DNA of 54,711 bases, taken from the IMG/VR virus record IMGVR_UViG_3300019742_000004, positions 1-54,711 of that record; one strand, given 5' to 3'. This document shows positions 4,876 through 31,521 of this stretch, piece after piece. Within the stretch, counting starts at the first letter, position 1. Every line of letters starts with the position of its first letter. The translations under genes were made by a program, and so were the position numbers. The notes beneath the pieces are model-generated. The model saw only the letters and a list, made by a program, of their open reading frames with translations. It did not search any database and was not told the DNA's origin. The DNA comes from a virus. Lineage: Duplodnaviria > Caudoviricetes.

Positions 4876-4876
4876 T

Positions 4877-7488: not shown

Positions 7489-7491
7489 AAC

Positions 7492-11383: not shown

Positions 11384-11418
11384 TAATGTAATAATTCATA
11401 AACGAAAAATATAAAGAG

Positions 11419-11592: not shown

Positions 11593-11839
11593 AATTAAAA
11601 GAGAAGTTCCCGAATAGCTATAAGTAAATTCGGGAATTTTCTGAAAAAACAAATACAATAGGAAGAACGTGTCTTTATAGGTTTTTAAAATCAAAAGGTT
11701 ATCCTGATAGTTTTATTTTAACAAAATATCTGAAAGAGTACGAGAATGATAATACTAAATAAATACACGCCAGAAGCATACGGAAACCTTAAAACACTAT
11801 GCGATGCTTTAAAAGTAAGTTACTACACTTATAAAGCAT

Positions 11840-12226: not shown

Positions 12227-12276
12227 CTTTACCACCAGCTAACCCTTTAACTTACAAGCAACAATACAGTATAAAT

Positions 12277-12456
12277 ATGAAACTAAAAGACAAGATAATT
12301 AAAAGCGGTCTTAGTAACTATTACATAGCACAGCACTCAGGTATAAACAAATCAACAGTAGGTCGTATAAGATCAGGTATAATAAGATACCCGAGAGATG
12401 AAACAGCCGAAGCTATAGAAAAGGCTATTAAGAATCATTCTAAACAGCAAAAATAA
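12277..12456 (+). CDS. XRE/Cro-like helix-turn-helix protein (59 aa)
   Basis: Read manually: GLSNYYIAQHSGINKSTVGRIRSG...PRDETAEAI. Confidence 0.75.
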   Translation: MKLKDKIIKSGLSNYYIAQHSGINKSTVGRIRSGIIRYPRDETAEAIEKAIKNHSKQQK

Positions 12457-12466
12457 ACGCAAATTA

Positions 12467-12498
12467 GTTGCAAGGCTCGCAACTAGGTATTATATTTA
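12467..12498 (+). promoter_or_regulatory. promoter with GTTGC-N7-GCAAC palindrome
   Basis: gttgcaaggctcgcaac 12467-12483 followed by tatattta. Confidence 0.55.
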
Positions 12499-12527
12499 CA
12501 GTATAGAAATTCAAAAAAAACAAAGAG

Positions 12528-12821
12528 ATGAGACTAAATACAAAAAACAAAAGCACAAGGTTCATGAATGGCAACATTGATGTCGATGGCGTTATTTTAG
12601 ATATTCTTATAGAAGAACATGGTCACGCCGCTGTATACTCATCTAATATTGATTTTAGTGAAGCAATTTACTCAAATGGGTTTATTGAAGCTATAGAGGA
12701 TGATAAAATACCTATGTTAAAATTATATCCAACTGATTCACATAGATTTTATAATGAATTAAGTGAATATCATCATATTATTGTGAATGACGAATGTTAT
12801 AATGTATATTTTAAAAACTAA
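12528..12821 (+). CDS. hypothetical protein
   Basis: ORF behind the promoter. Confidence 0.6.
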   Translation: MRLNTKNKSTRFMNGNIDVDGVILDILIEEHGHAAVYSSNIDFSEAIYSNGFIEAIEDDKIPMLKLYPTDSHRFYNELSEYHHIIVNDECYNVYFKN

Positions 12822-12831
12822 ACATAAGATT

Positions 12832-13167
12832 ATGAAAACTTCAACAAAAAATTACGAACATGAATTAAAATGGTTTAACAATCTAACATCTAAAAACAAC
12901 GAATCAGTATCACATGTTTATTATATACAAGATATCCAGACAATAGAGATGCTTAACAAGTATTTTGAAGATTCAGGAGGAGAGCAGAAGTCTGCTATAT
13001 GGGTAGATATAGACGGCCTTATAACTAAGGCTAGTATTGATTGCACTAAAGAAGGTTGTAATTGTTCAGGATCATGGAGTGAAGAGTACTGTGAGCATGA
13101 AGAGGAAGATTTTTATTTCAATTACGAAGATTTATTTAATATTCTTAGTTTACGATATAAACATTAG
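12832..13167 (+). CDS. hypothetical protein
   Basis: ORF; non-overlapping ATG 12832 chosen. Confidence 0.6.
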   Translation: MKTSTKNYEHELKWFNNLTSKNNESVSHVYYIQDIQTIEMLNKYFEDSGGEQKSAIWVDIDGLITKASIDCTKEGCNCSGSWSEEYCEHEEEDFYFNYEDLFNILSLRYKH

Positions 13168-13230
13168 TCACTCCAGCCCCGCTCTGAAACAAAAGCGGGG
13201 AATTGGTGGTAAAACTAAAAAACTTTTGAT

Positions 13231-13515
13231 ATGAAAGATTTATATTATTTCGAAAAAGAAAAAACTTTAATTTGGATAACTGGATACGGTAGTTTTAATA
13301 ATTTAAAAGATAGATTCGAACACTACAGTGAAAAAGCAGACATCCTCAGTAAATTAATAAACAGAGATACTAATGATGTATGCCATTTGTTTATAGAAAA
13401 TTCATCTAGATTCGAAAGAATGAATTGCTTTTATCTACAAGGTGTAACAGAAAAACCAGAAGAAGCAATGGAAATGTGTGAAGATTGGACTGTAAGTAGT
13501 TGGATAAGGAGGTAG
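13231..13515 (+). CDS. hypothetical protein
   Basis: ORF with GATATG start context. Confidence 0.6.
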   Translation: MKDLYYFEKEKTLIWITGYGSFNNLKDRFEHYSEKADILSKLINRDTNDVCHLFIENSSRFERMNCFYLQGVTEKPEEAMEMCEDWTVSSWIRR

Positions 13516-13518
13516 CTT

Positions 13519-13773
13519 ATGAAGCTTAAAATAATACAAGTATGTCAAAAGTTCCAGATTCAGGAACGAATACCCTGCACTAACGTATTCCTAAAAGCAA
13601 ATATCAGCGGTGTAATAAACTCATTTTCTAATATACCAGCCGCTTTAAGAATAATAAAGAAAAAGTACGGATACAAAGGAGAAGAACTAAAAATAATTAT
13701 TGATTATGGAGTTAATAAAGATAGGATTTTCGCAGGAGAGACTAATAAAACTATTCCACGCCAGAAAAGATAG
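13519..13773 (+). CDS. hypothetical protein
   Basis: ORF in tight operon. Confidence 0.5.
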   Translation: MKLKIIQVCQKFQIQERIPCTNVFLKANISGVINSFSNIPAALRIIKKKYGYKGEELKIIIDYGVNKDRIFAGETNKTIPRQKR

Positions 13774-13982
13774 TGAAATAAAACTAAACGTAACTAAAGC
13801 CGATATAATAAATGCAAAGTATGGTTTTAGCAAAATATCTAAAAACTGAAATTATGAAATATTCATTAACAGATTAGCTTTTATAAGCCAGAAACTTATA
13901 CAGTTATGTTATATAAAAGGAAAAGATCTTTCCGAAAGCGAATACAGAACACTAGAAGAGAACAACTATTTAATTTAATGTT

Positions 13983-14177
13983 ATGGAAAAAATAACTCTA
14001 AAAGAAGTAAACGCAATTAATGAGATTTTATACCAACAAGTAGAAGCTTTACAGAAATACGAAGGTGACGACATCACAACCTCATGTAACGCTATATTAA
14101 GCGCAATTCAGCGTAACATCAAGTATTTTACCGATCAAAATCTTAAGAAGGATGGGAATAAAACAAGTAATTCTTGA
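13983..14177 (+). CDS. hypothetical protein
   Basis: ORF in operon. Confidence 0.5.
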   Translation: MEKITLKEVNAINEILYQQVEALQKYEGDDITTSCNAILSAIQRNIKYFTDQNLKKDGNKTSNS

Positions 14178-14352
14178 TTACGTATCAAGTAAACAAAACA
14201 AAGAACACGGAGTAAGTAGAACTAGGATATTTAACTATTTTAATAATATTTACACCCGTGACGAAATATCACAATCAATAAGCGAGTTACAAACCGAAAA
14301 ATTAATGAGATATGAAAACCCAACAGGACAAATCTACACGACTGACATGTAG
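14152..14352 (+). CDS. small winged-helix-like protein
   Basis: ILDYV...GVSR...EISQSISEL...GQIYT pattern. Confidence 0.45.
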   Translation: MGIKQVILDYVSSKQNKEHGVSRTRIFNYFNNIYTRDEISQSISELQTEKLMRYENPTGQIYTTDM

Positions 14353-14531
14353 ATCATTAGCATTATTTAGATCAAAAAGAAAAGAGCTAGCGATGAAAGG
14401 CATAAAAGCGATATACGCTGGTGAATCAAAAGACGCACCAGAAGAGTTAAAACAAAAGGGCGACTTGAGGTGGTTGGTTGTTTGGTAACGACTATAAAAT
14501 AAAAACACCTTTTAATCTAAAAAAACAAGAT

Positions 14532-14708
14532 ATGAAAAATAAATTTCCAGAAAATAAAAAACTTAGCATAAAATACAGGTGCAAAGAAGACGGCGGTGTA
14601 TATTCTGCCGAACAAGCAAGTAATATGCCTAACAATCATTTCAGGTTAATAACTGAGAAAGGCAAAGAAATTGGTGAATTTGTAAAATGGAGTGATGAAA
14701 CTAACTAA
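14532..14708 (+). CDS. hypothetical protein
   Basis: AGATATG start; overlaps the MTase start. Confidence 0.5.
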   Translation: MKNKFPENKKLSIKYRCKEDGGVYSAEQASNMPNNHFRLITEKGKEIGEFVKWSDETN

Positions 14709-15483
14709 AAAACAAATAAAAGCACACGAAGAGGCTTGCAAGTTACTAGAGAAAGATAAATTAACTTTTGAAGATAAGATTTATGTTTTAGATAATTGGC
14801 AAGAAGGAGCTAATAACGTTAATAGTGTAGCGGGTGCTTTTTTTACACCTTGGAAATTAGCAAGAGATTTTAAATTAGCTGTATATTCAGATAAGAGAGT
14901 TATCGATCTATGCGCAGGAATAGGTGCTTTGTCTTTATTCATGGTAGAGCATGCCAAATGGGAGCAGAAAGTACCTGAAATAGTATGTTTAGAACTTAAC
15001 CACTCTTACATAGAAGTAGGTAAAAAAATAGTTCCTGAAGCAACTTGGATACATGGCAGCGTATTAGATCCTGAACTTATAAACTCATTAGGTCATTTTA
15101 CGCAAGCTATTTCTAATCCTCCTTTTGGAAGTATTAAAACAGGATCAGAATATAAGAAGTTTCTAAAATATAAAGGCTCGCAATTCGAGCTGAAAGTTAT
15201 AGAGATAGCTTCGCAGATCGCGGATTTTGGAAGTTTTATAATTCCCCAAATGAGTACACCTTATAAATATTCTGGAAATAACGGAATGTACGAAATGAAA
15301 GGAGATGAAATGCCACAAAAAGTTAAAACATTTATAGATCAAACTAAACTAGAGTATGATTTCAATTGCGGTATTGATACAGAGCAATATATAAACGAAT
15401 GGAAAGGCGTATCACCGATGTGTGAAATAGTTACTTTTGATTTCACACAAACTAAAAAAGCAATCCAACAAACATTATTCTAA
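14692..15483 (+). CDS. DNA adenine methyltransferase
   Basis: GAFFTP, VIDLCAGIGAL and NPPF motifs. Confidence 0.85.
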   Translation: MMKLTKKQIKAHEEACKLLEKDKLTFEDKIYVLDNWQEGANNVNSVAGAFFTPWKLARDFKLAVYSDKRVIDLCAGIGALSLFMVEHAKWEQKVPEIVCLELNHSYIEVGKKIVPEATWIHGSVLDPELINSLGHFTQAISNPPFGSIKTGSEYKKFLKYKGSQFELKVIEIASQIADFGSFIIPQMSTPYKYSGNNGMYEMKGDEMPQKVKTFIDQTKLEYDFNCGIDTEQYINEWKGVSPMCEIVTFDFTQTKKAIQQTLF

Positions 15484-15761
15484 TGGCAACAGATAAACAA
15501 CATTATAATTCAATTGTTAAGCGAGGTCTTATAAACGACAAGACAAGTAAACAAGACTTCAGAAAACAAATCATAGAAGAATTTCAAGAGCTAATAAAAG
15601 AACTCTACTACAACATAGATAATGATAAATTAAACGCAAAAGAGATACAAGAAAGCGTTGATTTAGTGCAAACTATAAAGAATATGTTTATCTATTTTGA
15701 CGTAGATTACAACACAGCTTTAGAAGTTAATATTAATCACCAACTAAGCCGTAAAGACTAA
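15483..15761 (+). CDS. MazG-like/all-alpha NTP pyrophosphatase-like protein
   Basis: EEFQEL...QESVDL acidic helices; weak. Confidence 0.4.
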   Translation: MATDKQHYNSIVKRGLINDKTSKQDFRKQIIEEFQELIKELYYNIDNDKLNAKEIQESVDLVQTIKNMFIYFDVDYNTALEVNINHQLSRKD

Positions 15762-15884
15762 TTTATATTTGTTCTAAACAACTAAATCACGATATTCGTA
15801 ATGAATTAGAAACCCAGATGTGAAATATAATTTTAACATTATAGATTCAGTTTAAGACTTCTGGGTTTCTTTAAAAACTAAGAT

Positions 15885-16283
15885 ATGGAAAAGCCAACAG
15901 TTGAATACAGAATAAAGATAAAAGATAAATTTATAGATCTTAGAGAGTTTCAAAGCGTAGAAGGAGTAACAACAGAATTCAACGTACATGGGATTTATGA
16001 CCCAATTCATTCACTAAGTTTTAGATACATAAAAGATATACCTGCAAATAATCCTTATTCTCACGTAGAGGAATTAAATACTGCAAAACCTAGGTATCAT
16101 GTAATAGATTTTACATGGAGTGATTTAAAATTAAAAGGCAAAAATAAAAGAGCTGGCTTAAGCATGATGACAGAGATAATGTCAAAAGCAATTAGTCATT
16201 TAGCCGATGATTTACAAGAAAGAATTGATATTATTAATTCATATGAGGAAATAGATATTAATAATTACACAATGATAGAATAA
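15885..16283 (+). CDS. hypothetical protein
   Basis: ORF, AGATATG start. Confidence 0.6.
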   Translation: MEKPTVEYRIKIKDKFIDLREFQSVEGVTTEFNVHGIYDPIHSLSFRYIKDIPANNPYSHVEELNTAKPRYHVIDFTWSDLKLKGKNKRAGLSMMTEIMSKAISHLADDLQERIDIINSYEEIDINNYTMIE

Positions 16284-16471
16284 TGGCTAAAGAAATATTG
16301 TATAAAGACGAATATTGTGAGGTTATATTTAAATATAATACAAGAAAGGTCATAATAGGCAAAAATATACTATCTTACTTTAAGTCAAAACATAGATCTT
16401 TTTACGCTAAAACAAGAGAAGAAGCTATTTCAATAGCTGAGAAATTCCTGAATAAAAAAATAAACACATGA
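16283..16471 (+). CDS. hypothetical protein
   Basis: Coupled ORF. Confidence 0.5.
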   Translation: MAKEILYKDEYCEVIFKYNTRKVIIGKNILSYFKSKHRSFYAKTREEAISIAEKFLNKKINT

Positions 16472-16650
16472 TAACTAAACATCTAATCCAATTACGCTAC
16501 AACGCAGGGTATACACAGAAAGAAGCGGCTGAACTGGCAGGTATTAGAACAGAAACTTTAGCATGCTGGGAAGTTGAAAGATACTCCCCATCTGTCAGAA
16601 AATTAAACGAGTATTTGAAAATATATAACAAACAACTTATTATAAAGTGA
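16468..16650 (+). CDS. XRE-family helix-turn-helix regulator
   Basis: LRYNAGYTQKEAAELAGIRTETLACWE...PS. Confidence 0.85.
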   Translation: MITKHLIQLRYNAGYTQKEAAELAGIRTETLACWEVERYSPSVRKLNEYLKIYNKQLIIK

Positions 16651-16844
16651 AATTAACAGGAAAAATACACGCAGGAAGCAACGAACTAAAGCAACTACAA
16701 ATGTCTTCTGAGTTAGAAGTAATAGATGTTAGAAATGTAATATTCGCTTGCTCGGATGCTTTAACTGTACTAAAAACTAAACCTAGGACACGTGTCATAC
16801 TAGGTAAATCAGTTAGAAAATTAATTGAAATATCATATAAATAA
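16647..16844 (+). CDS. hypothetical protein
   Basis: GTGA-coupled ORF. Confidence 0.45.
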   Translation: MKLTGKIHAGSNELKQLQMSSELEVIDVRNVIFACSDALTVLKTKPRTRVILGKSVRKLIEISYK

Positions 16845-16869
16845 CTTGGTATTTTTTAGTAATCAGCGC

Positions 16870-16902
16870 AAAAGAGAGGTGTAGGGGTATACCTCTCTTT
16901 TT
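16870..16902 (+). terminator. hairpin/terminator
   Basis: aaaagagaggt...acctctctttt. Confidence 0.55.
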
Positions 16903-16916
16903 AAAAAATTAGAGAT

Positions 16917-17204
16917 ATGAAAATAAAAGAAAAGGTACGTCACATTATAAGTGAAGTATGTACACACTGGATATGCGTAGATGATAACGAGTTAGAAAAA
17001 GTTTCTGCCTACTTAGCTGTAGGTATACAGAAATTAATAGACGAGGATGGTAATAAAAAAACTAACTGGTTAATAAAGCATCGTAAATCAGGAATTGTGA
17101 GAGAGTTTAATGATATAGTACTAGATGAATTAATTGATAATATAATGAAATTGCCGGATAGTGATTTAGCTAGTTATATGGTATGTGAACAAGTTTTAGA
17201 ATAA
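16917..17204 (+). CDS. hypothetical protein
   Basis: ORF, AGATATG start. Confidence 0.6.
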   Translation: MKIKEKVRHIISEVCTHWICVDDNELEKVSAYLAVGIQKLIDEDGNKKTNWLIKHRKSGIVREFNDIVLDELIDNIMKLPDSDLASYMVCEQVLE

Positions 17205-17210
17205 AAAGAT

Positions 17211-17996
17211 ATGATACAAATTAAAACATTTAGAAAAAATGCAAGTGACAAATCTGTAAATGATTTCCTTGCAAATAATCAAGGCTCTAAGATAGTATGT
17301 TATGATCCTATTAGGGTTGAGTATGAAGAGATGAGTAAATTAGAATTACCTTCTGCTGAATTTGTATCAGCTAATGTGATATATATGTACATATAGTTTA
17401 CAAGCGAAACTACATCATCTTTCAGAAGTAAATATAATACAGCATACTATTGTTCTGATTATGAAGAAACAAATTGCGATAATTGTGATAAATATTGTTT
17501 AAATGCTATTAACGAAAAACAGTTAACGTATACTAAAACATATTTATTTAATAGAATAACGGAATTTGTAGATTATTGGCTAATAACTAACCAAAAAGGC
17601 GAATACGTAAAAGTTTTTCGAGATAATGAAAACACAATTGAAACTAATGTAAAATATATACCTAGTTATTGTACAGGATTTAATAATGTAAGATTATTAA
17701 ATAAAAGTTTTGAATTTACTGGCGAAGACTGCGGTGATTTAGATAGGTATAAATTATGTGATAATAACTCTTTTATGAGTGAATTAATATCTATAGAAAA
17801 TTTTATACATACATCACCAACTATTTCATACAATGAGAGGACAAAGTCATTTCAATCAATTAGTAACTCAATTGATAGAGTAGGTCAAAATATACGTCAT
17901 GGGCTTATTGAAAATGGAGAAGATATAGCTAGTGCCACTATTCGAGCCTCTAATATACAAGCTAGTGCTACTAGAAAATATTTACGTAGAAAATAA
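17211..17996 (+). pseudogene. 261-codon frame broken by one in-frame TAG (17394-17396)
   Basis: Listed ORFs 17211-17396 and 17775-17996 share a frame and the sequence between them has no other stop. Confidence 0.75.
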
Positions 17997-18010
17997 TTTA
18001 AAACTAAAAC

Positions 18011-18322
18011 ATGACAGAAAAACCAATACACTACAGCCAACTTGATCTACTCAAACGACAAGGCGATTCTGTTGTAATCTTCGAAGACACTTTAAGCAGA
18101 GCAGCAATACGGCATTACACGGATAAAAAAAAGTTCTTTGTTAAAATACAACGAATAGCAGTAGTTACAACAACTTCAGAAGGTTCCACCTGTAGAAATG
18201 CTTTTGAGGTAATAAGGAAGGAAAGTGAATGTAAACACCTTAGGGAGTTTGTTAAAAATACAAAACATTATACATTAGAGTTTTGCCCTACGTGTAAAAA
18301 ATATTTTGAAATAAAACGGTAA
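18011..18322 (+). CDS. hypothetical protein
   Basis: ORF with C-terminal CKH...CPTC. Confidence 0.55.
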   Translation: MTEKPIHYSQLDLLKRQGDSVVIFEDTLSRAAIRHYTDKKKFFVKIQRIAVVTTTSEGSTCRNAFEVIRKESECKHLREFVKNTKHYTLEFCPTCKKYFEIKR

Positions 18323-18337
18323 TTTAAAATAGATGAT

Positions 18338-19405
18338 ATGGCAAATTTTAAAATAACAGGCGAATACATTACTGATAACTCTCGTAAATTATGGCTACAA
18401 GGAGATTATAAAGATGCAATATCATTTGTAGAAAGCTCTGTTCCGGAAATGAATAAAGTTCAGATAATAAGCCTAATCGAGTATGACATGAAGCTTTCCG
18501 GAGTTAATGAATTAGATTTTGTGAAAGATGAAAGGAATAAACCTAATTATTATCCATTATTTAACGATATCATAGGATTTGCTCAAAACGCTAGAACTGT
18601 AATTGACGACATACAAAATGACCATAGATTAGAGGCTAATAACATAATAAATGAATTCAATAGTTTTGAAGGTTTAGTTAGTAATAAAAATTATCAAGAT
18701 AGGTGTTGTGATTTAGCAAGGAGATGGTTTAATATATTGCCAGAAGTACGTCTTGAAATGAACCGATTTGTTCCGTATTATTTATCATTGTATTTAAGAC
18801 AAGTTAGTAAACTTGATTATAAATCTTTTAATGATAAATACGAGAAAGACGGTCTTTTTAAAACTAGACTTGGTGGATGGGGTGTTATTTCTCATAAATC
18901 TATAATATTATCTATATTTGGAGATAAAAAATTTATTTTTTTTACAAAAAAAGGTAGAGACACTTATGACAGAGTGTGCGATGATTTATTTATATATGGA
19001 GAGGAGAGAGAGTCTATATATAATGACTTAAAAAATCTTCATACAAGAATTACAAAACCTATTAATAAATATCAAGAAAAAGAAAAGCCTTTAATAAAAA
19101 CAAAAGCATCTAAAGATTATATTTTCGGATGGATATCTAAAGATGGATGGGTTTATCCATGTGATTATCTAAAACACAGTATTACTTCTTATCGTATTTT
19201 AAATGAAATACATTATAAAAAAACTACCTACACTACATCTGAACACGATTTAGAAAAATTAGGATATGTGAGAGTGCATATAAGGGATGATAATCCTGAT
19301 TATATATTATTCTCTCATATGGATAAAATAACCACGCATCAACAAAAAAGGATAGATGAATATAAAAAATATCATAATATAAAATATAATAATTATAGAT
19401 ATTAA
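18338..19405 (+). CDS. hypothetical protein (355 aa)
   Basis: Long ORF; C-terminal GWISKDG...H...GYVRV resembles 22264-22617. Confidence 0.7.
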   Translation: MANFKITGEYITDNSRKLWLQGDYKDAISFVESSVPEMNKVQIISLIEYDMKLSGVNELDFVKDERNKPNYYPLFNDIIGFAQNARTVIDDIQNDHRLEANNIINEFNSFEGLVSNKNYQDRCCDLARRWFNILPEVRLEMNRFVPYYLSLYLRQVSKLDYKSFNDKYEKDGLFKTRLGGWGVISHKSIILSIFGDKKFIFFTKKGRDTYDRVCDDLFIYGEERESIYNDLKNLHTRITKPINKYQEKEKPLIKTKASKDYIFGWISKDGWVYPCDYLKHSITSYRILNEIHYKKTTYTTSEHDLEKLGYVRVHIRDDNPDYILFSHMDKITTHQQKRIDEYKKYHNIKYNNYRY

Positions 19406-19487
19406 TATAATTAAATTAAAATACCTATATTTGTATTACCGCTTGAAAGGGCGGTTTTAAAATAAAAACTAAATAACATTGTAAAGC

Positions 19488-19667
19488 ATGAAGTTAATTA
19501 AAACAAGCGAAAAAGTATTAATTTGGTTGCATAGAGAGGAAAAAACACAAAAATGGCTAGGAGATGAATTAGGAGTTACTAGGCAGGCAGTAAGTCAAAA
19601 AATAAAAGATAATATATTCACTGTAGGCGATATATTAAAATTAAAATCATTAGGCTGCAAATTATAG
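19488..19667 (+). CDS. Cro-like helix-turn-helix protein (59 aa)
   Basis: Read manually: KTQKWLGDELGVTRQAVSQKI; follows TATATTTG, precedes the replication genes. Confidence 0.75.
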   Translation: MKLIKTSEKVLIWLHREEKTQKWLGDELGVTRQAVSQKIKDNIFTVGDILKLKSLGCKL

Positions 19668-19735
19668 CCTTTTTTAGCTTTAAAAAATAACATTGTCAAC
19701 TAATTATAATAATTAATAAAAAAGTAAATAATATT

Positions 19736-20371
19736 ATGGCAGAAGGTAAGAAAGGATTTGTATTATATGCTGATATTATACATACAGTTAAAAAACTGCC
19801 AAATGATAAAGCAGGCGAGTTATTTAAGTTTATTCTAGACTATGTAAATGATAAAAACCCTAACACAGATGACCTTATAACTCAACTTGCTTTTGAACCG
19901 ATAAAACAAAGTTTAAAACGTGATTTAGAAAAATATGAAGCTAGATGTAAAAGAAATAAAGAGAACGGTAACAAAGGCGGTAGGCCACCTAGGAAACCGA
20001 CTGAAGAAATAATTAACCCAAAAAAACCCACTGGGTTAAATGGGTTACAAGATAAACCCAAAAAACCCGATAGTGATACAGATAGTGATAGTGATATTAT
20101 ATATTCTTTCGATGACTTTTGGAAAAAGTATCCTAAGAAAGTAGGTAAAAAGGATTGCGAAAAAATCTTTTCAAAATTAAAGGATAGTGAATTACAAAAA
20201 ATAAAAGATACTTTAGATTTATTCATTACTTATAAGCCTTTCGAATCATATAATCATCCTAATCCTAAGTCATATCTTAATCAAAAACGCTGGGAAGACG
20301 AAATAAGTACAGAATCGACAGTAAGTAATAAACCTAAAACAGTAGTAACTATAAATAAACCTGTTAGATAA
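19736..20371 (+). CDS. phage replication initiator (DUF6291-like N-terminus)
   Basis: KKGFVLY...AGELFK...NGNKGGRP; C-terminal FDDFWKKYPKKVGK...YLNQKRWEDE; upstream of DnaB. Confidence 0.8.
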   Translation: MAEGKKGFVLYADIIHTVKKLPNDKAGELFKFILDYVNDKNPNTDDLITQLAFEPIKQSLKRDLEKYEARCKRNKENGNKGGRPPRKPTEEIINPKKPTGLNGLQDKPKKPDSDTDSDSDIIYSFDDFWKKYPKKVGKKDCEKIFSKLKDSELQKIKDTLDLFITYKPFESYNHPNPKSYLNQKRWEDEISTESTVSNKPKTVVTINKPVR

Positions 20372-21753
20372 TGAATGATTTAGGCAAGATACCACCGCAA
20401 GCTATAGACCTAGAAGAAGCTGTTCTTGGAGCTTATATGATAAGTAGTGAAGCTATATTAAATACGATTGACTTAATAACTCCTAGTCACTTTTATAAAA
20501 ATAATCACGTAGTTATATGTTCAGCTATATATGATTTATATAAAAATAATAAGCCTGTAGATATTTTAACCGTAGTGGAATATCTAAAAAATAAAGAACA
20601 ACTAGAAAACGTAGGAGGTGTGTCAAAAATAGCTGAATTAACGGATAAAATAGACGCCCCTAGCAATGCAGAGTATTACGCCAGAATTATATCAGAAAAA
20701 TACATAAAAAGAGAATATATAAGAATAGCTCATGAGTTGCAAAAAAAAGCTTTTGACGATAGTGAGGATATGAGCGATATAATAACTTATGCAGAGAAAT
20801 CAATATTATCAGTTTCAGAGCAATTAAGTGTTTCTGAACCGCAATTTATAGAACAGTCTTTACCGTCTACTTATCAGCTTATAAAAAAAGCACAAGAAAG
20901 GGCGCAAAATGGAGAGTTTACAGGTATACCAACTGGGTTACGAAGATTAGACGAGATTACAGGAGGTTGGCAAGATACAGATTTAATAGTATTAGCAGCA
21001 CGCCCAGCTATGGGTAAAACAGCCGTAGCAATGTATTTTGCTAAAGCAGCTACTACATACGAATTTCCTACGCTATTTTTTAGTTGTGAAATGAGTGTAG
21101 ATCAGTTGAATTCAAGATTGATATCTGGTAAAACTGAATATACACCTAGTGAGCTTAGAACAGGTTCATTTATGGATTTAGAACAAATAAAAGATGCTGT
21201 AGATATTTTAAGCCAAAACAAAATAATGGTAGATGATACAGCGAATATAAATATTCATGAACTATGTGCTAAGGCAAGAAGAGCTAAAAAAAAGAGCGAA
21301 ATAAAACTAATAATAGTTGATTATATACAATTAGTAACGGCAGGAAAAGAGTTTTCTGGAAATAGAGAGCAAGAGGTTAGTTATATTTCAAGGACATTAA
21401 AAGCATTGGCTAAGGATTTAAGAGTACCAGTTATTGCATTAGCTCAATTAAATAGGAGTTTAGAAAATAGGCCAAATAAAAAACCACAAAATTCTGATCT
21501 TAGAGAATCTGGAGCTATTGAACAAGATGCTGATATGATAATGTTTGTACACAGACCTATAGTTTACGGAGAAGATACAATGATGGTTAATAACGGGCAT
21601 GAAGAAATAGAAATAGCTTCTGAAGGTGTAGGTATGATACCAATTACTAAGAATAGACACGGAATGCTTGACGATGTAATGTTTAACCATAACATAGGTA
21701 TGACTGACTTAAATAACTTTAATTTTGATAATAGTAACGAACAAATATATTAA
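20371..21753 (+). CDS. dnaB: replicative DNA helicase
   Basis: PPQAIDLEEAVLG, AARPAMGKT, IVDYIQL, DLRESGAIEQDAD. Confidence 0.97.
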   Translation: MNDLGKIPPQAIDLEEAVLGAYMISSEAILNTIDLITPSHFYKNNHVVICSAIYDLYKNNKPVDILTVVEYLKNKEQLENVGGVSKIAELTDKIDAPSNAEYYARIISEKYIKREYIRIAHELQKKAFDDSEDMSDIITYAEKSILSVSEQLSVSEPQFIEQSLPSTYQLIKKAQERAQNGEFTGIPTGLRRLDEITGGWQDTDLIVLAARPAMGKTAVAMYFAKAATTYEFPTLFFSCEMSVDQLNSRLISGKTEYTPSELRTGSFMDLEQIKDAVDILSQNKIMVDDTANINIHELCAKARRAKKKSEIKLIIVDYIQLVTAGKEFSGNREQEVSYISRTLKALAKDLRVPVIALAQLNRSLENRPNKKPQNSDLRESGAIEQDADMIMFVHRPIVYGEDTMMVNNGHEEIEIASEGVGMIPITKNRHGMLDDVMFNHNIGMTDLNNFNFDNSNEQIY

Positions 21754-21780
21754 AATAGACTTAACCAAATAAAAAGAATT

Positions 21781-22203
21781 ATGAAAGAAATAAAATACAA
21801 TGCAGGAGACTTCGTTTATGACGACGAAAACAAAATATGTAGAATAAGCACCTCATATACTGACAAGAAAAAGAACTACGAAGGATATTCAAGAAACGAA
21901 GATATACAAGTAGAATATAACGATTCTGAAAACATTTATCTATCTAAAGTAGTTAATCCAATTCCTTTAAACGAGGAGTTGCTTTTGAAGTGTTGGTTTG
22001 AGAAGTATTCAAAAGACCATTTTATACTTAATGGAATATTAGGTACAAGGAAAATACACGCTTATACGTGTGAAAATAATATTTCTTTCGAGTTAGGCAA
22101 CCGAAGCGGATATAGTTTCGGACAACCTAAAGTGAAACACCTCCACCAACTCCAAAACCTATACTACGCCTTAACCCAAGAAGAACTACCCATCAACCTC
22201 TAA
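21781..22203 (+). CDS. hypothetical phage protein
   Basis: PIPLNEELL...HQLQNLYYALT motif common in Bacteroidota phage ORFs. Confidence 0.6.
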   Translation: MKEIKYNAGDFVYDDENKICRISTSYTDKKKNYEGYSRNEDIQVEYNDSENIYLSKVVNPIPLNEELLLKCWFEKYSKDHFILNGILGTRKIHAYTCENNISFELGNRSGYSFGQPKVKHLHQLQNLYYALTQEELPINL

Positions 22204-22263
22204 TTTATATTTGTTCTAAACAAATAAAGCCGTAATATTGAAATGAATTAAAAAACCAAGGAT

Positions 22264-22617
22264 ATGAATGACGCATGGATAGACGATAAAGGAAGGTTAA
22301 TCGAGGTAAGTACACATAATAGATATGCTAGTGAACTACTTGAGAAAGAAATGGGGTTCGAAGAATTGTATGAATACCTTGAAAACAACGATATAGAATA
22401 CCCGTATCAACTTTTACACAAGAGAGGATGGGTGAGAGTCAAAGTTTATAGTGCAGGTAGAATACAGATATTAGGTGACTGCATAGATTTAACTAAACAA
22501 ATGCGAAATACTATTGACCCAGCTATGAACGATAGACAATTAAGAGTAGCTAAACAACTTTGTAGAGAAGTAGGAATGGATTTTCACAACGCAATAAACG
22601 ATCGTAGATTTTGGTAG
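22264..22617 (+). CDS. hypothetical protein
   Basis: AWIDDKG...H...RGWVRV. Confidence 0.6.
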   Translation: MNDAWIDDKGRLIEVSTHNRYASELLEKEMGFEELYEYLENNDIEYPYQLLHKRGWVRVKVYSAGRIQILGDCIDLTKQMRNTIDPAMNDRQLRVAKQLCREVGMDFHNAINDRRFW

Positions 22618-22632
22618 ATTAAACTTTTAACC

Positions 22633-23007
22633 ATGAAAAAACTAAAAACAAGCATACATAAATACAGAGACAAAGCCAGAATACAAAATCACATCGACAC
22701 TGTTGTAATAAGCGGCCAAATTTCGATTCAAAAGATAGTTATGGTAGTATGTGACTATTTCGGGGTTGGAGTTGAAAAAATAGGTGTTAAAACAAGGAAG
22801 CGTGAAATACTTCAAGCACGGCAAATAGCTCATTATTTTTGTAAAGAATTAATTCCAGATTTAACCTACGAAAAAATAGGTCAGCAAATAGGAGGTAAAG
22901 ACGGATGTACAGCAAGGTGGAGCAGGGAAGAGGTCGTAAAAAGAATCGAGACAGAACCAGAATTCAGAAAAGCAATAGAAGAAATTGAAGATAAATTAAA
23001 ATCATGA
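22633..23007 (+). CDS. DnaA C-terminal-like HTH protein
   Basis: VCDYFGV...TRKREILQARQIAHY...IGQQIGGKD. Confidence 0.8.
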   Translation: MKKLKTSIHKYRDKARIQNHIDTVVISGQISIQKIVMVVCDYFGVGVEKIGVKTRKREILQARQIAHYFCKELIPDLTYEKIGQQIGGKDGCTARWSREEVVKRIETEPEFRKAIEEIEDKLKS

Positions 23008-23427
23008 AACCAGAGTATAAAAATTTTCTAGGTACACTAGTACTATCAGTAATAGTTTTAATTTTAATCTTTAAATTGTTAAAAATGGAAGAAGAAGAAA
23101 AAGTAGTAAACGAAGAAACAACAGAAACTACACAAGTAGAAAGTAATGACTCTGATTCAGATCATGTGACAGATGTGTTGTGGTAAGGTAAAAACGCCCC
23201 TCTCTGGAATATGGGAGGGGTTAACGTAGATGCGGTATGGTTAATAAAAAGCAACCACCGCAGCAGATTCAAAGCATTAAACTTCATTTGCTTTTTATTA
23301 ATTATGACCGCTTGTTATACCCCGTTTTTGTGGGGTGGACGAAAATAATTTACAGAAAAGTTTATTTTTATTTGGTAGTTAATACAGAAAACTGTATATT
23401 TGAAGTGTAATTTAAAAACTACAAGAT

Positions 23428-23595
23428 ATGGAACGTAGAATTAAACCAGATGTACAGATAAAATTAGAACCAATGGAGTACATAAAAAGAAACGCAAAAA
23501 CGGAACACCATTTTAAGGGCGTACCAAAGAAATACAAGGTGAAAACTATTGAAAATGGAGAAGTTAATTATTACAAAAGTGGACTTGAAGTATGA
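23428..23595 (+). CDS. small hypothetical protein (55 aa), cassette cargo
   Basis: Read manually; preceded by TATATTTG box and AGATATG. Confidence 0.6.
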   Translation: MERRIKPDVQIKLEPMEYIKRNAKTEHHFKGVPKKYKVKTIENGEVNYYKSGLEV

Positions 23596-23747
23596 GCAAC
23601 TTAATTAAATGGAGCGAACTGAGCCGCATATTAAGCGGTTCGGATAACTCTATAAGACCAAATAAAATACCAAAGAAATACGAACGCAAGGTTAAAAGAT
23701 TACTTCGTTTGCTAGATGCGTGGGAGCGTTTGGCAAATGGGGTATAA
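23592..23747 (+). CDS. small DNA-binding-like protein (51 aa), cassette cargo; paralog of 32019-32174
   Basis: MSNLIKWSELSRILSGSDNSIRPNKIPKKY; stop TAA lies in the junction TAAC. Confidence 0.7.
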   Translation: MSNLIKWSELSRILSGSDNSIRPNKIPKKYERKVKRLLRLLDAWERLANGV

Positions 23748-23852
23748 CGATTAATTATATGGGTAGTGCAACCCTCTAAACTGCACGAAAGTTGATTAAA
23801 TGTAGAACCGTTCCCGTTTTATTTTTTGAGCGTGGGCATAAAATTAAATAGA

Positions 23853-24119
23853 ATGAATGAATTTAAAGAGAAAAACCCAGAAATGTACGAAGAAATGGTT
23901 AACCAAATTTGCGATAGAATTGGTTGTGACCCTGATGAAGTAAAAGAAGCTAAAAATGTTAGAGATGATTTAGGCTTTGATTCATTAGATGAAATTGAGA
24001 TGATAATGGATTGTGAGCAAATGTTTGGTATTACCATAACTGACGATGAAGCCGAAGCCACAAATGGGGATATGCTTGAAATATGCAACGGGTTACAGCG
24101 TGCGGTGGAGAAAAAATAA
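23853..24119 (+). CDS. acpP: acyl carrier protein, cassette cargo
   Basis: DDLGFDSLDEIEMIMDCEQMFGITITDDEAE with phosphopantetheine-site Ser; acidic 88 aa. Confidence 0.85.
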   Translation: MNEFKEKNPEMYEEMVNQICDRIGCDPDEVKEAKNVRDDLGFDSLDEIEMIMDCEQMFGITITDDEAEATNGDMLEICNGLQRAVEKK

Positions 24120-24307
24120 AACTTGCACAAACGCTGATTAAACGCACGTTGCATTACCTATATAATGTGTTAGCAGCTGGCTTTACTTCTTAAATGTGGT
24201 AAAGCTAGAAAACAAGCATAGGTATTAATTTATTTAAGCTTGCCGCTAACGGTGTGAGTATGTTTAGTTGCGATACTGAACACAAAACTTAATTAAATAT
24301 TGATACT

Positions 24308-24535
24308 ATGAATAAAGCAGAAAGATTATTAAAAGGACTGAAACCGCAATTAAATATACTTGATGTTAGCTGTAGTTCTTTGAGACACCCAAAATGCAAA
24401 GGATTTAAAACGCCTGATGTTGGGTGGGGCAGTGACTATGATTGTGGTTACGACACTACAATAGACTGTGATGAATGTAAATATGGAGGCGGTAGAAAAG
24501 ACCCAGAAGCTAAATGTAATACGAATTACCGCTAA
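24308..24535 (+). CDS. Cys-rich hypothetical protein, cassette cargo
   Basis: Reads through GTT 24365; stop TAA lies in the junction TAAC. Confidence 0.65.
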   Translation: MNKAERLLKGLKPQLNILDVSCSSLRHPKCKGFKTPDVGWGSDYDCGYDTTIDCDECKYGGGRKDPEAKCNTNYR

Positions 24536-24574
24536 CTACCCGATAAGTACACATAAACATAATTACCTAACAAC
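24525..24574. repeat. attI-like array-terminal site, copy 2
   Basis: Identical to 4877-4926. Confidence 0.85.
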
Positions 24575-25074
24575 CAAGCAAATAAAATAGCATTTTGACA
24601 TGATATCCTCTAAACCATGTCAAGATATAGAGCTTATTTATATTGATTCTAAAAGATAGGTTTTATATCTTAGCATTCTAAAATATACAGATATGATACA
24701 AATAGCAAGCTCAAAAACAAAACTAGATATGATAAGCGATGTCGAAGAAGAATTAAACTTTGAAATACTAAAATACTGCTGTAAGGGATGGAAAGTATTT
24801 AAGCCAACTTACCTGTATTACTCAACAGATAATAAAAGGTATAGATACAAAGCAGAGCTGAAGAAATAGGATAATTAATTAATAATTAGTAAATTGCATA
24901 AGATGGAAGACTTTAAAAAACTGATTAGTTCTCTGGATGTGATTAAACAAGAGCTAATTATTTTAAACAAGAAGATAAAAGAATCTTCACAGGCTACAAA
25001 AGAGCTGGAAATCGAATTAAATAAAATAACAAATAGACCGCTATGGATGCGGTTGATATATTAAAATTAGAGAT

Positions 25075-25317
25075 ATGAAAGATCATTTAGGAAATGAATG
25101 GATTAAAAGTGATAGACCTTTAAAGGATTACCCTACTGGAACTAAAGCTAAAGCCGATGGTGGAGGGTATTGGGTTAAAAACGAAAGAGGCTGGAGTTGG
25201 TCTAATAGTAGCGCAACTTTTCCTACTCCGGGAGGAGATTGGAACGGGCATGTATCCTTGCCAAAAACTGTTTTTGAACAATTGCCTGATGGCGATTTAA
25301 CAGGTTTAACTAAATAG
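25075..25317 (+). CDS. hypothetical protein
   Basis: ORF, AGATATG start. Confidence 0.6.
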   Translation: MKDHLGNEWIKSDRPLKDYPTGTKAKADGGGYWVKNERGWSWSNSSATFPTPGGDWNGHVSLPKTVFEQLPDGDLTGLTK

Positions 25318-25319
25318 AT

Positions 25320-25811
25320 ATGAAATTAGAATTAAAACATTTAGCACCTTATTTGCCTTATGAGTTAAAGCTTAAAGGTAACGATGGTATTTACACATTA
25401 ATAGGACTAAGAAGCCCTTACAAGACAAACGATAAATGCTTTTTAACAGGTGAAGTAAGATATGAGAATACGACTAAAATCAGAAGTCACGTATTTAACA
25501 CTTCTAGTAAGGAAGAAGATATATTAATACCAATACTTCGTCCTTTATCCGGTCTAACAAAAGAGATAGAGGTTAATGGATACAGGTTTGTTCCTATTGA
25601 GGGAATTGATCAATTGTTCGGTGATTATAATACTAGTTATGAAGTTAGTCGCAATGGAACTTCAATATTTGAATACAAAGAAACCAGTATTTATACATTT
25701 TATAACGTTAATTGCTTCCCATGGTTTATTATCCAAAAACTCCACGAGTGGCACTTTGACACAAACAACTTAATAAAAGAAGGTCTAGCGATAGATATAA
25801 ATACATTGTAA
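25320..25811 (+). CDS. hypothetical phage protein
   Basis: LKHLAPYLPY...PILRPLS...WHFD motif typical of Bacteroidota phage ORFs. Confidence 0.65.
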   Translation: MKLELKHLAPYLPYELKLKGNDGIYTLIGLRSPYKTNDKCFLTGEVRYENTTKIRSHVFNTSSKEEDILIPILRPLSGLTKEIEVNGYRFVPIEGIDQLFGDYNTSYEVSRNGTSIFEYKETSIYTFYNVNCFPWFIIQKLHEWHFDTNNLIKEGLAIDINTL

Positions 25812-26073
25812 TTATGAGTAAAATGAAAACAATTTAGTTCATAGATGGTTCTGTAACTAATTTTGTTAAAACTATGGATTCATCCCATTTAAAATCAACT
25901 ACAAATAAAGCCGAAGCTGGTGTGTTTACCGAAAGAATGGCTAAAGAAGCAATCGATGAATTCTGCAACTCTTTTGAAGAATATTCCCCGCGTGATTTTT
26001 ACATAGAAACATGGAGATGTCCTTTTGAGAGTGAAATCTTAAGAAAGAAATATAGTTTAAATAAAGATCAATT

Positions 26074-29764: not shown

Positions 29765-30148
29765 ATGAAATATGAAGAAAATGATATTTTCGATAAAGCA
29801 ATAAAAGCAATAAAAGAAAACAACCTATATTTTATTGATGAAATTATAACTTATCTACCATGTGGCAAGACAACTTTTTATACTTTATTCCCTGCTGATT
29901 CGGACAAATTGAACCTTATAAAAGAAGCAATAGATGTTAACCGAGTGAGTACTAAGGTAAAGATGCGTAAAAAGTGGTACGATTCTGACAACGCTACATT
30001 ACAAGTAGCTTTAATGAAGCTTATTTCATCCGATAAAGAAGCTCATAGGCTAAATGGTACTAAGCAAGAAATAGATCACACAAGTAAAGGAGATAAAATA
30101 AACAATACTATCACAATAGGCTATAAAGATATTTCAGAAAAAGAATGA
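29765..30148 (+). CDS. terS: terminase small subunit (putative)
   Basis: HTH-like TTFY, C-terminal QEIDHTSKGDKI, overlaps terL start. Confidence 0.7.
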   Translation: MKYEENDIFDKAIKAIKENNLYFIDEIITYLPCGKTTFYTLFPADSDKLNLIKEAIDVNRVSTKVKMRKKWYDSDNATLQVALMKLISSDKEAHRLNGTKQEIDHTSKGDKINNTITIGYKDISEKE

Positions 30149-31521
30149 ATCTAGATATAGACCCAAGGCTATTTAACCCGTTGTATTGGCATATACTAGA
30201 TGCTATGAGCGATGAAGACATAAGAATGATCCTATTAATGGGTGGTTCTTCTTCTGGTAAGAGCTATTCATACTCCCAAGCTGTCAATATAGATACATTG
30301 CAAAACCCATCAAACACAATGATGATGAGAAAATACAATGTAGATATAAACGATAGTATATATGCAGATGTAAAAGGGTTCGGGTCTAAGCTAAACAAGT
30401 ACACTAATAACTATGAGTTTATCCGAGGCTTAGCCCGTATAGGTAGTTCACAAGTAAAATTTAGAGGGTTAGATGATTCTGAGCGTATAAAGGGTTTAGC
30501 GTCTTACAAAAGGGTTATACTTGACGAGCTTAATCAATTTGCTAAAGCTGATTTAGACCAGATAAAAAAGAGGTTAAGAGGTATGCCCGGACAGCAAATA
30601 CTAGCAAGCTGGAATCCTATAAGTACAGAGCATTGGGTTAAAAATGATTTAGTTGATTTAGAATACTGGGAAGACTTACCAACAGAATTAGAAGGCAATA
30701 AGCTGTCTGCTTTATATACTGGGCAAGAAAGAAAAGATATTCCTGAAGAATATCAAGAATTGTTTGACGGGAAACCAAAAACACATTCATACAAAAAGAT
30801 TAATAAAAAGGGTAATATACTGCTTATAAAATCAACTTTTAGAGACAACTTCTGGGTATGTGGTCACCCTTCAGGCAAGGAATATGGTTACTTTGATAAT
30901 CACGTATTAGATAACTTTCTACACGATAAAATACACAACCCTGTAGATTATGATATATACGCTAATGGAGAATGGGGAGTTATCACAGATAAATTAATAT
31001 TTCCTAAACTTAATTACTGCGAGAAAGTACCAGAGAATGCAAAGCGTATACCTACAGGATTAGATTTTGGTTATAACCCAGATCCTACAGCGGCAGTTGA
31101 TCTATGGATAAGGGGTAACGAGGTATACATAAAAGAAAGGTTATATAAAACTAATCTTAACTATAGAAAGAGTGATGTTGACGATAGTATACAGGAAGAA
31201 CTTGAGAAAAGCAAATTCGATAAATCACAACTAATAATCTGTGAATCAGCGGAGCCAAGAGGTAAGCGCGAATTAATGGAAGCAGGATTTAACATATGGG
31301 CTACATCAAAAAAATCTGGGTATAAAATCGAGATGATAAAAATAATGCGCTCATATAGTATATTTATAGTAGGTGACTCACCTAATGTAAAAAAAGAATG
31401 GTCAACTTATGAACGCGCTGAAGACAAACAAGGAACTATATTACCACAACCAAAAGACGGTAATGACCACACAATAGACGCAACTTTTTATGTATTCCTG
31501 ATGCGTAACAAACTATGGTAA
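30145..31521 (+). CDS. terL: terminase large subunit (PBSX-like)
   Basis: Walker A GGSSSGKS, Walker B ILDE, nuclease GLDFG and NDHTIDA. Confidence 0.95.
   Translation: MNLDIDPRLFNPLYWHILDAMSDEDIRMILLMGGSSSGKSYSYSQAVNIDTLQNPSNTMMMRKYNVDINDSIYADVKGFGSKLNKYTNNYEFIRGLARIGSSQVKFRGLDDSERIKGLASYKRVILDELNQFAKADLDQIKKRLRGMPGQQILASWNPISTEHWVKNDLVDLEYWEDLPTELEGNKLSALYTGQERKDIPEEYQELFDGKPKTHSYKKINKKGNILLIKSTFRDNFWVCGHPSGKEYGYFDNHVLDNFLHDKIHNPVDYDIYANGEWGVITDKLIFPKLNYCEKVPENAKRIPTGLDFGYNPDPTAAVDLWIRGNEVYIKERLYKTNLNYRKSDVDDSIQEELEKSKFDKSQLIICESAEPRGKRELMEAGFNIWATSKKSGYKIEMIKIMRSYSIFIVGDSPNVKKEWSTYERAEDKQGTILPQPKDGNDHTIDATFYVFLMRNKLW

Follow-up and report, generated by a model that had tools for sequence, protein, structure and literature searches.

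The segment at 23221-24587 of the IMG/VR virus record IMGVR_UViG_3300019742_000004 was found to hold a row of small open reading frames (ORFs) enclosed by inverted 12-nt arms and headed by a long imperfect hairpin, and we consider it rather probable that this segment is an integron-like array of mobile, promoter-less, phage-specific cassettes resembling a cluster of attC sites lacking integron integrases (CALIN). The full 54,711-nt record, to which all coordinates refer, is hereafter called the window; it is linear, with an estimated completeness of 69% and a G+C content of about 32%, and carries every sizeable ORF on the + strand, as it does the genes, modules and brackets described below. 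The bracketed, hairpin-marked cassettes belong to a large phage-specific family with a common anatomy, covarying stems and arms, diverse cargo and a spread across unrelated phages. The system is not a canonical integron, given that the linked enzyme failed the integrase test and that the strand and orientation rules differ. The integron-like reading was nevertheless preferred to the alternatives weighed below, because it alone explains the TAAC/GTTA letters, the pairing of the arms only in a circle or loop, the breakpoints at TAAC, the replacement of arrays and the linkage to a recombinase.

Anatomy of the 23221-24587 array

The array is entered at a TAAC (23221-23224), into which continues the 3' arm, GGGAGGGGT, of a GC-rich terminator-like hairpin closing the upstream gene block (23196-23221; predicted helix 23196-23204/23213-23221). 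A motif check located this hairpin, CCCCTCTC…GGGAGGGG, at 23197-23220, in agreement with the original prediction, which had been made from the bare sequence and had placed a GC hairpin before the entry AAC. The array then opens with a 95-nt attC-like hairpin module, M1 (23223-23317), which is supported by family alignment and stem covariation and has the layout AAC-GTAGAT-GCGGTATG-(14-bp perfect stem, 33-nt loop)-TTATG(bulged G)ACCGC-TT-GTTA. Its predicted DNA fold reached -18.4 kcal/mol (z -3.2).

The 5' arm of cassette 1, GTTATACCCCGT (23314-23325), pairs with the 3' arm, ATGGGGTATAAC (23737-23748; motif and signature match), through 11 Watson-Crick pairs and one G.T pair out of 12. All three GTT…AAC pairs that had been proposed were recovered by the motif check, the first of them (GTTATACCCC at 23314 / GGGGTATAAC at 23739) being complementary at 10 of 10 positions. 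The cargo consists of two overlapping small ORFs (23428-23747), a 55-aa ORF (23428-23595) that gave no family match and a 51-aa ORF (23592-23747) that matched phrog_34662, a family of unknown function (1.1e-10). The claim that two cargo stop codons are the TAA of a TAAC junction held for the latter ORF and for the ORF 24308-24535 of cassette 3. A promoter box had also been assigned to the first cassette, and TATATTTG is indeed present at 23395-23402, 26 nt upstream of the ATG at 23428; it fits TAnnTTTG, which we take to be the Bacteroidota -7 promoter consensus. Since this general motif was not enriched in the window (74 observed versus 80.6 expected), the box is treated here as a consensus match and a putative promoter. 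It lies 78 nt after M1 and is the sole promoter-like box of the array, the -33/-7 consensus being absent inside the module.

The following gene (23853-24119) encodes an 88-aa acyl carrier protein (ACP) with a DSL phosphopantetheine site (PF00550, 2.4e-8; phrog_5934 acyl carrier protein, 2.5e-12; NCBIfam ACP models, 8.4e-16, under their cut-offs). It is enclosed by a long-range 19-nt stem in which 23754-23772 pairs with 24148-24166 (inverted repeat I6 and predicted helix; 89% complementary, inner ends AAC/GTT), and inside this stem lie a perfect 12/12 bracket (23816-23827 / 24111-24122) and two copies of the 19-nt motif TGCACnAAnnnTGATTAAA (23782 and 24124). Such nesting would be expected if one unit had inserted itself at another unit's junction. 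The description of the region as three cassettes is thus a simplification: the three pairs are real cassette-like brackets, but the ACP gene sits in a separate 19-bp stem with a bracket of its own. A perfect 24-nt inverted repeat (2080-2103 / 2417-2440) enclosing an ORF of 97 aa (2131-2424) was also noted in the first array of the window (1912-4888); with a TAAC (2073) before it and a GTTG (2443) after it, its stem repeats the layout of the ACP-gene stem.

Cassette 2 is an ORF-less unit of 82 nt (24169-24250) whose arms, GTTAGCAGCTGG and CTTGCCGCTAAC, form nine Watson-Crick pairs and one G.T pair out of 12, and which contains an inner hairpin (24177-24187/24198-24208). Its GTT…AAC pair (GTTAGCAGC at 24169 / GCCGCTAAC at 24242; 8/9 complementary) represents a weaker subtype, GTTA-N4-GCTGG / CTTGCC-N-TAAC, that recurs at 1912/2073 and in two other loci (L018 and L102). 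Between the TAAC at 24250 and the GTTA at 24365, a 17-bp stem with two G.T pairs (24256-24272 with 24345-24361) encloses the ATG at 24308; it is the weakest element of the array, since its folding energy is not better than that of shuffled sequences (z -0.09). Cassette 3 (24365-24536) is bounded by a strict signature pair of arms, GTTAGCTGTAGT (24365-24376) and ATTACCGCTAAC (24525-24536), with a GTT…AAC pair (GTTAGCTGTAGTTC at 24365 / GAATTACCGCTAAC at 24523) complementary at 12 of 14 positions. Its cargo is a Cys-rich ORF of 75 aa (24308-24535), for which a shorter form starting downstream of the 5' arm is possible.

The array ends in copy 2 of a 63-nt direct repeat (24525-24587), an A/C-rich, unstructured attI-like candidate (minimum free energy about 0) that contains ATTACCGCTAAC and ATTACCTAAC. 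Copy 1 (4877-4939) fills the gap from the last arm of the first array to the ATG of a recombinase gene. The repeat had been predicted as one of 50 bp; it exists, but is 63 nt long, and its two copies are 94% identical. Its relatives were likewise unstructured, and an exact 23-mer taken from it had no match in IMG/VR.

The module family and its covarying stems and arms

That the brackets are chance inverted repeats in AT-rich intergenic DNA is scarcely credible. The second pair and the 24256-24361 stem are individually weak, and a loose long-range search for 12-mer GTT…AAC pairs exceeded shuffled sequences only modestly (28 pairs versus 18 ± 3.4), with many of its pairs being AT-rich. On the other hand, GTT…AAC 14-mers with at most two mismatches numbered 10 against 2.63 ± 1.78 expected (30 shuffles), and the strict signature GTTR-N6-GT…AT-N6'-YAAC occurred five times on the + strand and never on the - strand, against a mean of 0.11 and a maximum of 1 in 200 shuffles. 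The first and third pairs of the array are among these five, and for both of them, as for M1, chance is refuted. The same covarying architecture moreover recurs in 24 of the 33 modules described next.

The module ends AACGTAGATGCGGTATG and TTATGACCGCTTGTTA each occur exactly twice in the window, at 11840-11928 and at 23223-23317 (M1); the centres of the two modules differ widely in sequence, yet each forms a long stem. IMG/VR scans with either module end returned 10 and 46 loci, from which regular-expression extraction yielded 36 candidates; three were dropped as false (L017, a second site in L021, and L046), and 33 modules were kept, two from the window and 31 from IMG/VR, so that at least 31 further modules are present in IMG/VR phage contigs. 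They fall into two size classes of about 90 and about 126 nt. Alignment of 15 modules with MAFFT and RNAalifold recovered the invariant outer stem only, the centre being misaligned, and stem covariation was for this reason counted by a script over 32 modules, with L030 excluded as mis-trimmed. Beyond the invariant GCGG/CCGC, the stems comprised 327 Watson-Crick, 60 G.T, 0 A.C and 4 other pairs, distributed over 21 distinct stem sequences with a constant bulged G. The presence of 60 G.T pairs and the absence of A.C pairs indicated that one strand folds and that this is the coding strand.

In 24 of the 33 modules, the 12-nt arm following the hairpin, GTTA-N6-GT, is matched 216-459 nt downstream by AT-N6'-TAAC at a score of at least 10.5 over the 12-nt arms, which shuffled-arm searches reached in 26 of 1650 cases. 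The start of a cassette is accordingly complementary to its inverse core, as in the attC rule, with the window instances at 23314/23748 and 24365/24536. A typical pair combines 11 Watson-Crick pairs with one G.T pair, the latter at position 11 in 23 of the 24, and 15 distinct covarying N6 hexamers were counted among them; some of the nine modules that gave no arm match have truncated flanks. The commonest arm allele is GTTAGGC/GCCTAAC, which we take to be the classical integron core-site consensus. Since another module-like start often follows the closing TAAC, the units form arrays.

The 25 cargo segments consist of small ORFs of 11-125 aa, usually one per segment, with a single homologous pair among them. 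The cargo stop is the TAA of the TAAC in 11 of the 25, and the cargo lies on the module strand in 24 of 24. No protein family recurred within ±5 kb of the modules, the most widespread being found at 4 of 36 loci. Of 185,579 prokaryote genomes, one contained a short-class module with the exact 3' end, located on a 2.3-kb contig of a metagenome-assembled genome. Rfam gave no match at the gathering score over the whole window and none at E ≤ 1 in 22900-24900, and distant blastn searches with the module returned short chance matches only.

These features could also arise if the modules were sense-strand RNA structures of a polycistronic early transcript, with the cassettes shuffled by homologous recombination at module or arm sequences, an explanation that we regard as unlikely though far from negligible. 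The module stems would then be processing sites, for instance for a double-strand-specific RNase, and pairing of the 12-nt arms would hold the two ends of each small mRNA together for stability or translation control. The co-orientation of module and cargo speaks for it, as do the conserved G.T pair of the arms and the stronger folding of the array region on the + strand (z -6.1, versus -4.1 on the - strand and -2.6, -2.0 and -1.8 in three control regions). Folding of the sense strand, with 15% G.T and no A.C pairs in the stems, fits RNA at least as well as DNA. In addition, 33 of the 38 module-bearing records lack a PF00589 protein, a hybrid module in one locus (L027, see below) fits crossover within module homology, and two reports on T4-type phages (PMC2839356, PMC4122927) offer a precedent in the promoter early stem-loops (PeSLs). 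An RNA structure leaves unexplained, however, the invariant TAAC/GTTA letters, the homology and array boundaries that fall exactly at TAAC with unrelated sequence beyond, and the fixed distance of a cassette end before one recombinase clade. The modules also lack the promoter consensus that PeSLs carry and a match to any Rfam family, and 15 differing arm hexamers would offer poor homology for exchange. The integron-like reading and the RNA explanation are not mutually exclusive.

Cassette turnover and the Xer-like recombinase

The supported arrays of the window are several, at about 1912-4888, 11840-12210 and 23221-24536. The first has brackets at 1912/2073, 2443/2526, 2641/2959, 3075/3333 and 4720/4888 and includes an N6/N4 DNA methylase gene (3452-4348); an arm-like GTTGTGTGC at 3384 found no 3' partner there (best score 6.5/12). 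The second is a single cassette (11840-12226) consisting of the module 11840-11928, the arms 11925-11936 / 12199-12210 and a cargo ORF of 82 aa (11949-12197); downstream come a leader motif akin to the 63-nt repeat (12206-12226) and then a helix-turn-helix regulator gene (12277-12456). The last cassettes of the first and third arrays (4720-4888 and cassette 3) have diverged from one another as paralogues, with an identical 3' arm and a common stretch of 63 nt downstream. Their relationship is the best hint of the inter-array traffic that had been suggested; no recombination event was seen.

Whole arrays have been replaced between near-identical phages. The content of arrays would have had to be invariant among relatives for the original prediction to fail, and it was found to vary: the loci L019 (3636-4925) and L054 (reverse strand, 10469-12490) have backbones that are 96-99% identical on either side, yet the former holds three and the latter five entirely different cassettes of the same grammar, between the shared anchors …ttttacaTAAC and cattaTAACcccactt. 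A 180-nt indel between these two records was considered as a TAAC event and rejected, as it is an ordinary gene indel between ribosome-binding-site repeats. Loci from different contigs generally share the module only (about 50-170 nt, 77-99% identity), and, despite identical module ends, the window (G000) has one protein in common with G002 and five in common with G001. One cassette is common to L015 and L027 (92% amino-acid identity), with homology running from inside the module to exactly …TAAC and unrelated flanks. The L027 module (306-410) is a hybrid, its 5' half resembling the window module 11840-11928 and its 3' half the L014/L015 type, a structure suggestive of homologous crossover within modules.

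A single gene for a tyrosine recombinase is present in the window (4941-5756; PF00589, 1.5e-33); its product is a Xer-like protein of 271 aa with the catalytic residues R, K, H, R, H and Y, invariant in an alignment of 22 sequences. Its best NCBIfam match was of the XerA type (181.5 bits versus a cut-off of 220), and all equivalogs remained under their cut-offs, including the integron-integrase models TIGR02249 (126.9 bits versus 265) and NF011946 (77.1 versus 435). Each of the latter two matched in two stretches (TIGR02249 to model position 180, NF011946 at model positions 259-322), and because these stretches skip the region of the IntI extra domain, that region appears to be unmatched. The first array is co-directional with the recombinase gene and not divergent from it as at a canonical attI site.

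A cassette end occupies a fixed position before this gene. The recombinase ATG lies 52 nt after the last arm of the first array (ATTACCGCTAAC, 4877-4888), and in the window and four other module-bearing records, whose homologues are 34-40% identical, a cassette arm (YAAC) ends 36-65 nt before the ATG. An independent test was made on non-redundant viral loci picked by recombinase homology only. A matched arm pair ended 30-95 nt before the ATG in 9 of 34 such loci, and in 9 of the 20 with at least 33% identity, as against none of 164 controls; among close homologues, 17 of 27 had a TAAC ending 36-56 nt ahead of the ATG, as did 3 of 17 and 4 of 17 more distant ones, compared with 66 of 584 control ORF starts. 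As both positions exceed the controls, the enzyme and the cassette junction are linked.

Such a site might simply serve phage integration, the Xer-like enzyme being a lysogeny integrase, the 63-nt sequence its attP, the copy at 24525-24587 a pseudo-site and the brackets unrelated. Integrase genes usually lie beside attP, as the 63-nt repeat does directly before the recombinase gene, and one module-bearing record (G031) is classed as a provirus. This explanation seems quite improbable, given that the site before the recombinase is a cassette 3' arm both in the window with its four module-bearing homologues and in the close homologues found independently, and that the stretch from TAAC to ATG is not conserved among homologues save for further TAAC motifs. 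The scarcity of the short-class module in prokaryote genomes further indicates that such phages are rarely seen as prophages.

The contigs of four microbial-mat DNA runs were aligned to 4600-24599 as a check for recombination; no RNA run was listed alongside them. One run (X1) contains the identical phage. Contigs ended inside both 63-nt repeats; no contig of the four runs showed a deletion between these repeats, and none showed a strand-change joint or inversion at the brackets, so that the suggested check for rearrangement or deletion between the repeats found none there. Contigs drop rare variants, and this negative is for that reason weak evidence. In the other three runs (X2-X4), contigs join 14353-like to 23219-23300-like sequence, with many differences and sides of 30-45 nt; the joint may represent the module of another phage beside unrelated DNA, or an alignment artefact at GTAGA.

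The missing strand-change joints also count against a further explanation, that of single-strand transposition with an HUH/Y1 cut after TAAC, or of invertons flipping single genes. Insertion after a fixed tetranucleotide beside a hairpin recalls the ends of IS200/IS605 elements, the inverted arms flank whole genes, and NCBIfam tyrosine-invertase models weakly matched the recombinase (51 bits versus a cut-off of 222). However, a Y1 transposase was present in 1 of 20 records and not in the window, the arm sequences vary between units, unlike transposon ends, and active inversion would not leave the cargo on one strand in 24 of 24 cases. We therefore hold transposition or inversion to be very improbable indeed.

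Several observations weigh against the integron-like reading itself. The recombinase lacks the integron-integrase insertion, its distant homologues in L073 and L074 (26-29% identity) have no cassette arm upstream, and a PF00589 protein was found in only 5 of 38 module-bearing records (2 of the 12 with at least 90% completeness), with Y1 transposases (1 of 20 records) and serine recombinases (2-3 of 20) being no commoner. M1 is the sole clean hairpin module of its own array; each of the two further "modules" spans a gene or the start of one, and the folding of one does not exceed the chance level. The arm allele GTTAGGCACAGT is joined to different cargo ORFs in six contigs, so that arms are not strictly cargo-specific, and the halves of the L027 hybrid stem do not pair. 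To these are added the lack of recombination joints in the contigs and the sense-strand folding noted above. As regards the proposal of a multi-locus system served by one recombinase, the several arrays and the sole PF00589 match directly after one of them agree with it, but the enzyme is Xer-like, and its service cannot be general because a tyrosine recombinase occurs in so few module-bearing records, near-complete ones included.

Read along the coding strand, each unit runs from TAA/C through a short spacer and a long imperfect hairpin to GTTA-N6-GT, and then across a small ORF to AT-N6'-TAA/C. On the integron-like reading, excision of the unit as a circle would bring the 12-nt arms to either side of the hairpin and create one extended folded sense-strand site, combining a paired 'R-box' (inner AAC/GTT) with an unpaired spacer, a bulged-G stem and a variable loop, according to the logic of attC. 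A tyrosine recombinase, here presumably the Xer-like protein of 4941-5756, would exchange units at the TAAC/GTTA junction, and its own site would be the TAAC-containing 63-nt sequence directly before its start codon. Three points of this scheme are inferred: folding as DNA, action of the recombinase on the cassette sites, and a circular cassette intermediate. The 23221-24587 array, with a 63-nt copy at its end and no adjoining recombinase (the nearest lies 17.5 kb away), would be served in trans.

A broader proposal, which we put forward tentatively as possible though somewhat short of probable, is that Bacteroidota phages own an analogue of the integron, in which a Xer-like enzyme with a site upstream of its gene shuffles hairpin-tagged single-gene cassettes across unrelated phages, the cassettes being nearly absent from bacterial chromosomes. 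Most arrays would be recombinase-free and serviced in trans during co-infection, and the window would comprise one complete platform and two satellite arrays. If true, this would provide a concrete mechanism by which phages gain and swap small accessory genes (ORFans, methylases and possible counter-defence genes), and, because the linked enzyme is of Xer type, would extend the strategy of folded-hairpin cassettes beyond the IntI integrases; it would also bear on the origin of integron integrases from Xer-like ancestors. For the detection of such cassettes in viromes, the bracket signature in its strict form, together with the module ends, provides a simple search key, and even if the RNA explanation were correct, the module would be a widespread, strongly covarying and unannotated structured element of phage early regions.

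The 23221-24587 array lies directly downstream of replication genes, namely those for a DnaB helicase (20371-21753) and, adjoining it, a 124-aa protein consisting of the C-terminal helix-turn-helix domain of DnaA only (22633-23007; PF08299, 8.3e-18). The relatives of the 4941-5756 recombinase include Bacteroidota proteins, which, together with the TAnnTTTG-type box, points to a Bacteroidota host. Among isolated phages, megablast of 22000-26000 gave no DNA-level match, and tblastn with DnaB and ACP matched distant phages only (below 60% identity). Single-protein locus searches with the recombinase and with a 633-aa protein found no relatives, a metagenome scan with the DnaA-C-like neighbour gene returned relatives of 37-43% only, uninformative on the array locus, and a tRNA scan of the window was negative. 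Direct repeats of about 23 nt, TAATTTATATTYRTTCTAAAC (families D1, D2 and D5), stand ahead of genes at 1538, 5749, 6268, 15759, 19820 and 22201 (also 24633); they contain the TATATTTG box and are probably phage promoters. A 108-nt inverted repeat (96% complementary) occupies 1539-1646 and 37718-37825, 36 kb apart; its first copy overlaps the repeated promoter-like sequence, and its second lies in the sole region of the window with near-zero GC skew.

Comparison with known systems

Sites of the attC type are imperfect palindromes, about 57-141 nt long, in which R''…AAC / GTT…R' boxes are combined with an unpaired spacer, one or more extrahelical bases and a variable loop. In its anatomy M1 corresponds to such a site, having 95 nt, a TAAC/GTTA base, unpaired spacers of 6 and 2 nt, a bulged G and a 33-nt loop, and the same anatomy holds across the module family, with atypical spacer sizes and 12-nt arms. 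As in CALINs and integrons, promoter-less small ORFs stand between imperfect hairpins (88-129 nt) with AAC…GTT triplets, which share with attC the unpaired spacer, the bulged base and the variable loop; as in integron cassettes, the first bases are complementary to those before the cassette's own AAC. A CALIN is defined by at least two attC sites with no integrase nearby, and the array presents one clean attC-like hairpin (M1) and three bracket pairs. The differences from integrons are considerable. The linked enzyme is Xer-like, with no integron integrase; the arms pair over 12 nt instead of about 7, and the spacers measure 5-6 nt and 2 nt. Integron cassettes place the ORF before attC and fold the bottom strand, whereas here the cargo comes after the hairpin along the coding strand, and it is the sense strand that folds. 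The array is co-directional with the recombinase gene, in contrast to the divergent arrangement of canonical integrons, and prokaryote genomes are all but devoid of the module family.

The IntegronFinder 2 report (PMC9024848) describes canonical integrons as rare in Bacteroidetes, and Qi et al. (2023; PMC9892861) found 17 CALINs in 10,705 phage genomes, with methyltransferases as recurrent cargo. These include a CALIN with methyltransferase cassettes in Polaribacter phage P12002L, of which IntI1 recombined one of two tested attC sites (PMC9892861). The present system resembles phage CALINs in its diverse cargo and in the DNA methylase of the neighbouring array, and shares its bracket signature with P12002L (L066), an isolated phage of Flavobacteriia, in which we found four strict GTTG-N6-GT / AT-N6'-CAAC brackets on the early-gene strand (30952-31120, 39242-39518, 40047-40154 and 40552-40764). 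A 60-nt element of the form TAAC-GGCTAC-hairpin-ATT-GTTAGGCAC (GTTAGGC), a candidate attC, lies between two methyltransferase genes of that phage at about 30040-30080. The type-1 module ends are absent from P12002L in spite of the bracket signature.

Xer sites that lie beside their own gene or on a folded single strand are exemplified by xerS/difSL, the attP of CTX phage and the pdif modules. Like these, the window has a small Xer enzyme without an arm-binding domain and a probable site directly upstream of its gene, and, as with single-strand Xer substrates, a hairpin formed from one strand is the candidate substrate. In contrast to Xer/dif systems, a dif-like site of 28 bp with its two 11-bp arms could not be recognised, and the sites are variable except for TAAC/GTTA and the module ends. 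Our literature search turned up no account of a phage cassette system linked to a Xer enzyme.

In REP/RAYT (repetitive extragenic palindromes and their associated tyrosine transposases) and in IS200/IS605 elements, a hairpin with a short conserved tag folds from a single strand and insertion occurs after a fixed tetranucleotide. The cassettes resemble these elements in their tagged hairpins, strand-specific folding and fixed-tetranucleotide insertion, but differ in having no associated HUH/Y1 protein (1 of 20 records) and in carrying diverse ORFs and long-range arms that covary.

Functionally, the nearest phage counterpart appears to be the PeSLs of T4-type phages, stem-loop motifs that flank variable small ORFs in hyperplastic regions and are thought to drive modular gain, loss and replacement among close relatives (PMC2839356, PMC4122927). 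Conserved stem-loops flanking small variable ORFs are common to both systems. PeSLs, as described there, are direct repeats that join an early promoter to a stem-loop and act through homologous recombination; the modules of the present family carry no promoter consensus, and their junctions are instead characterised by the fixed TAAC/GTTA letters, the covarying inverted arms and a linked tyrosine recombinase.

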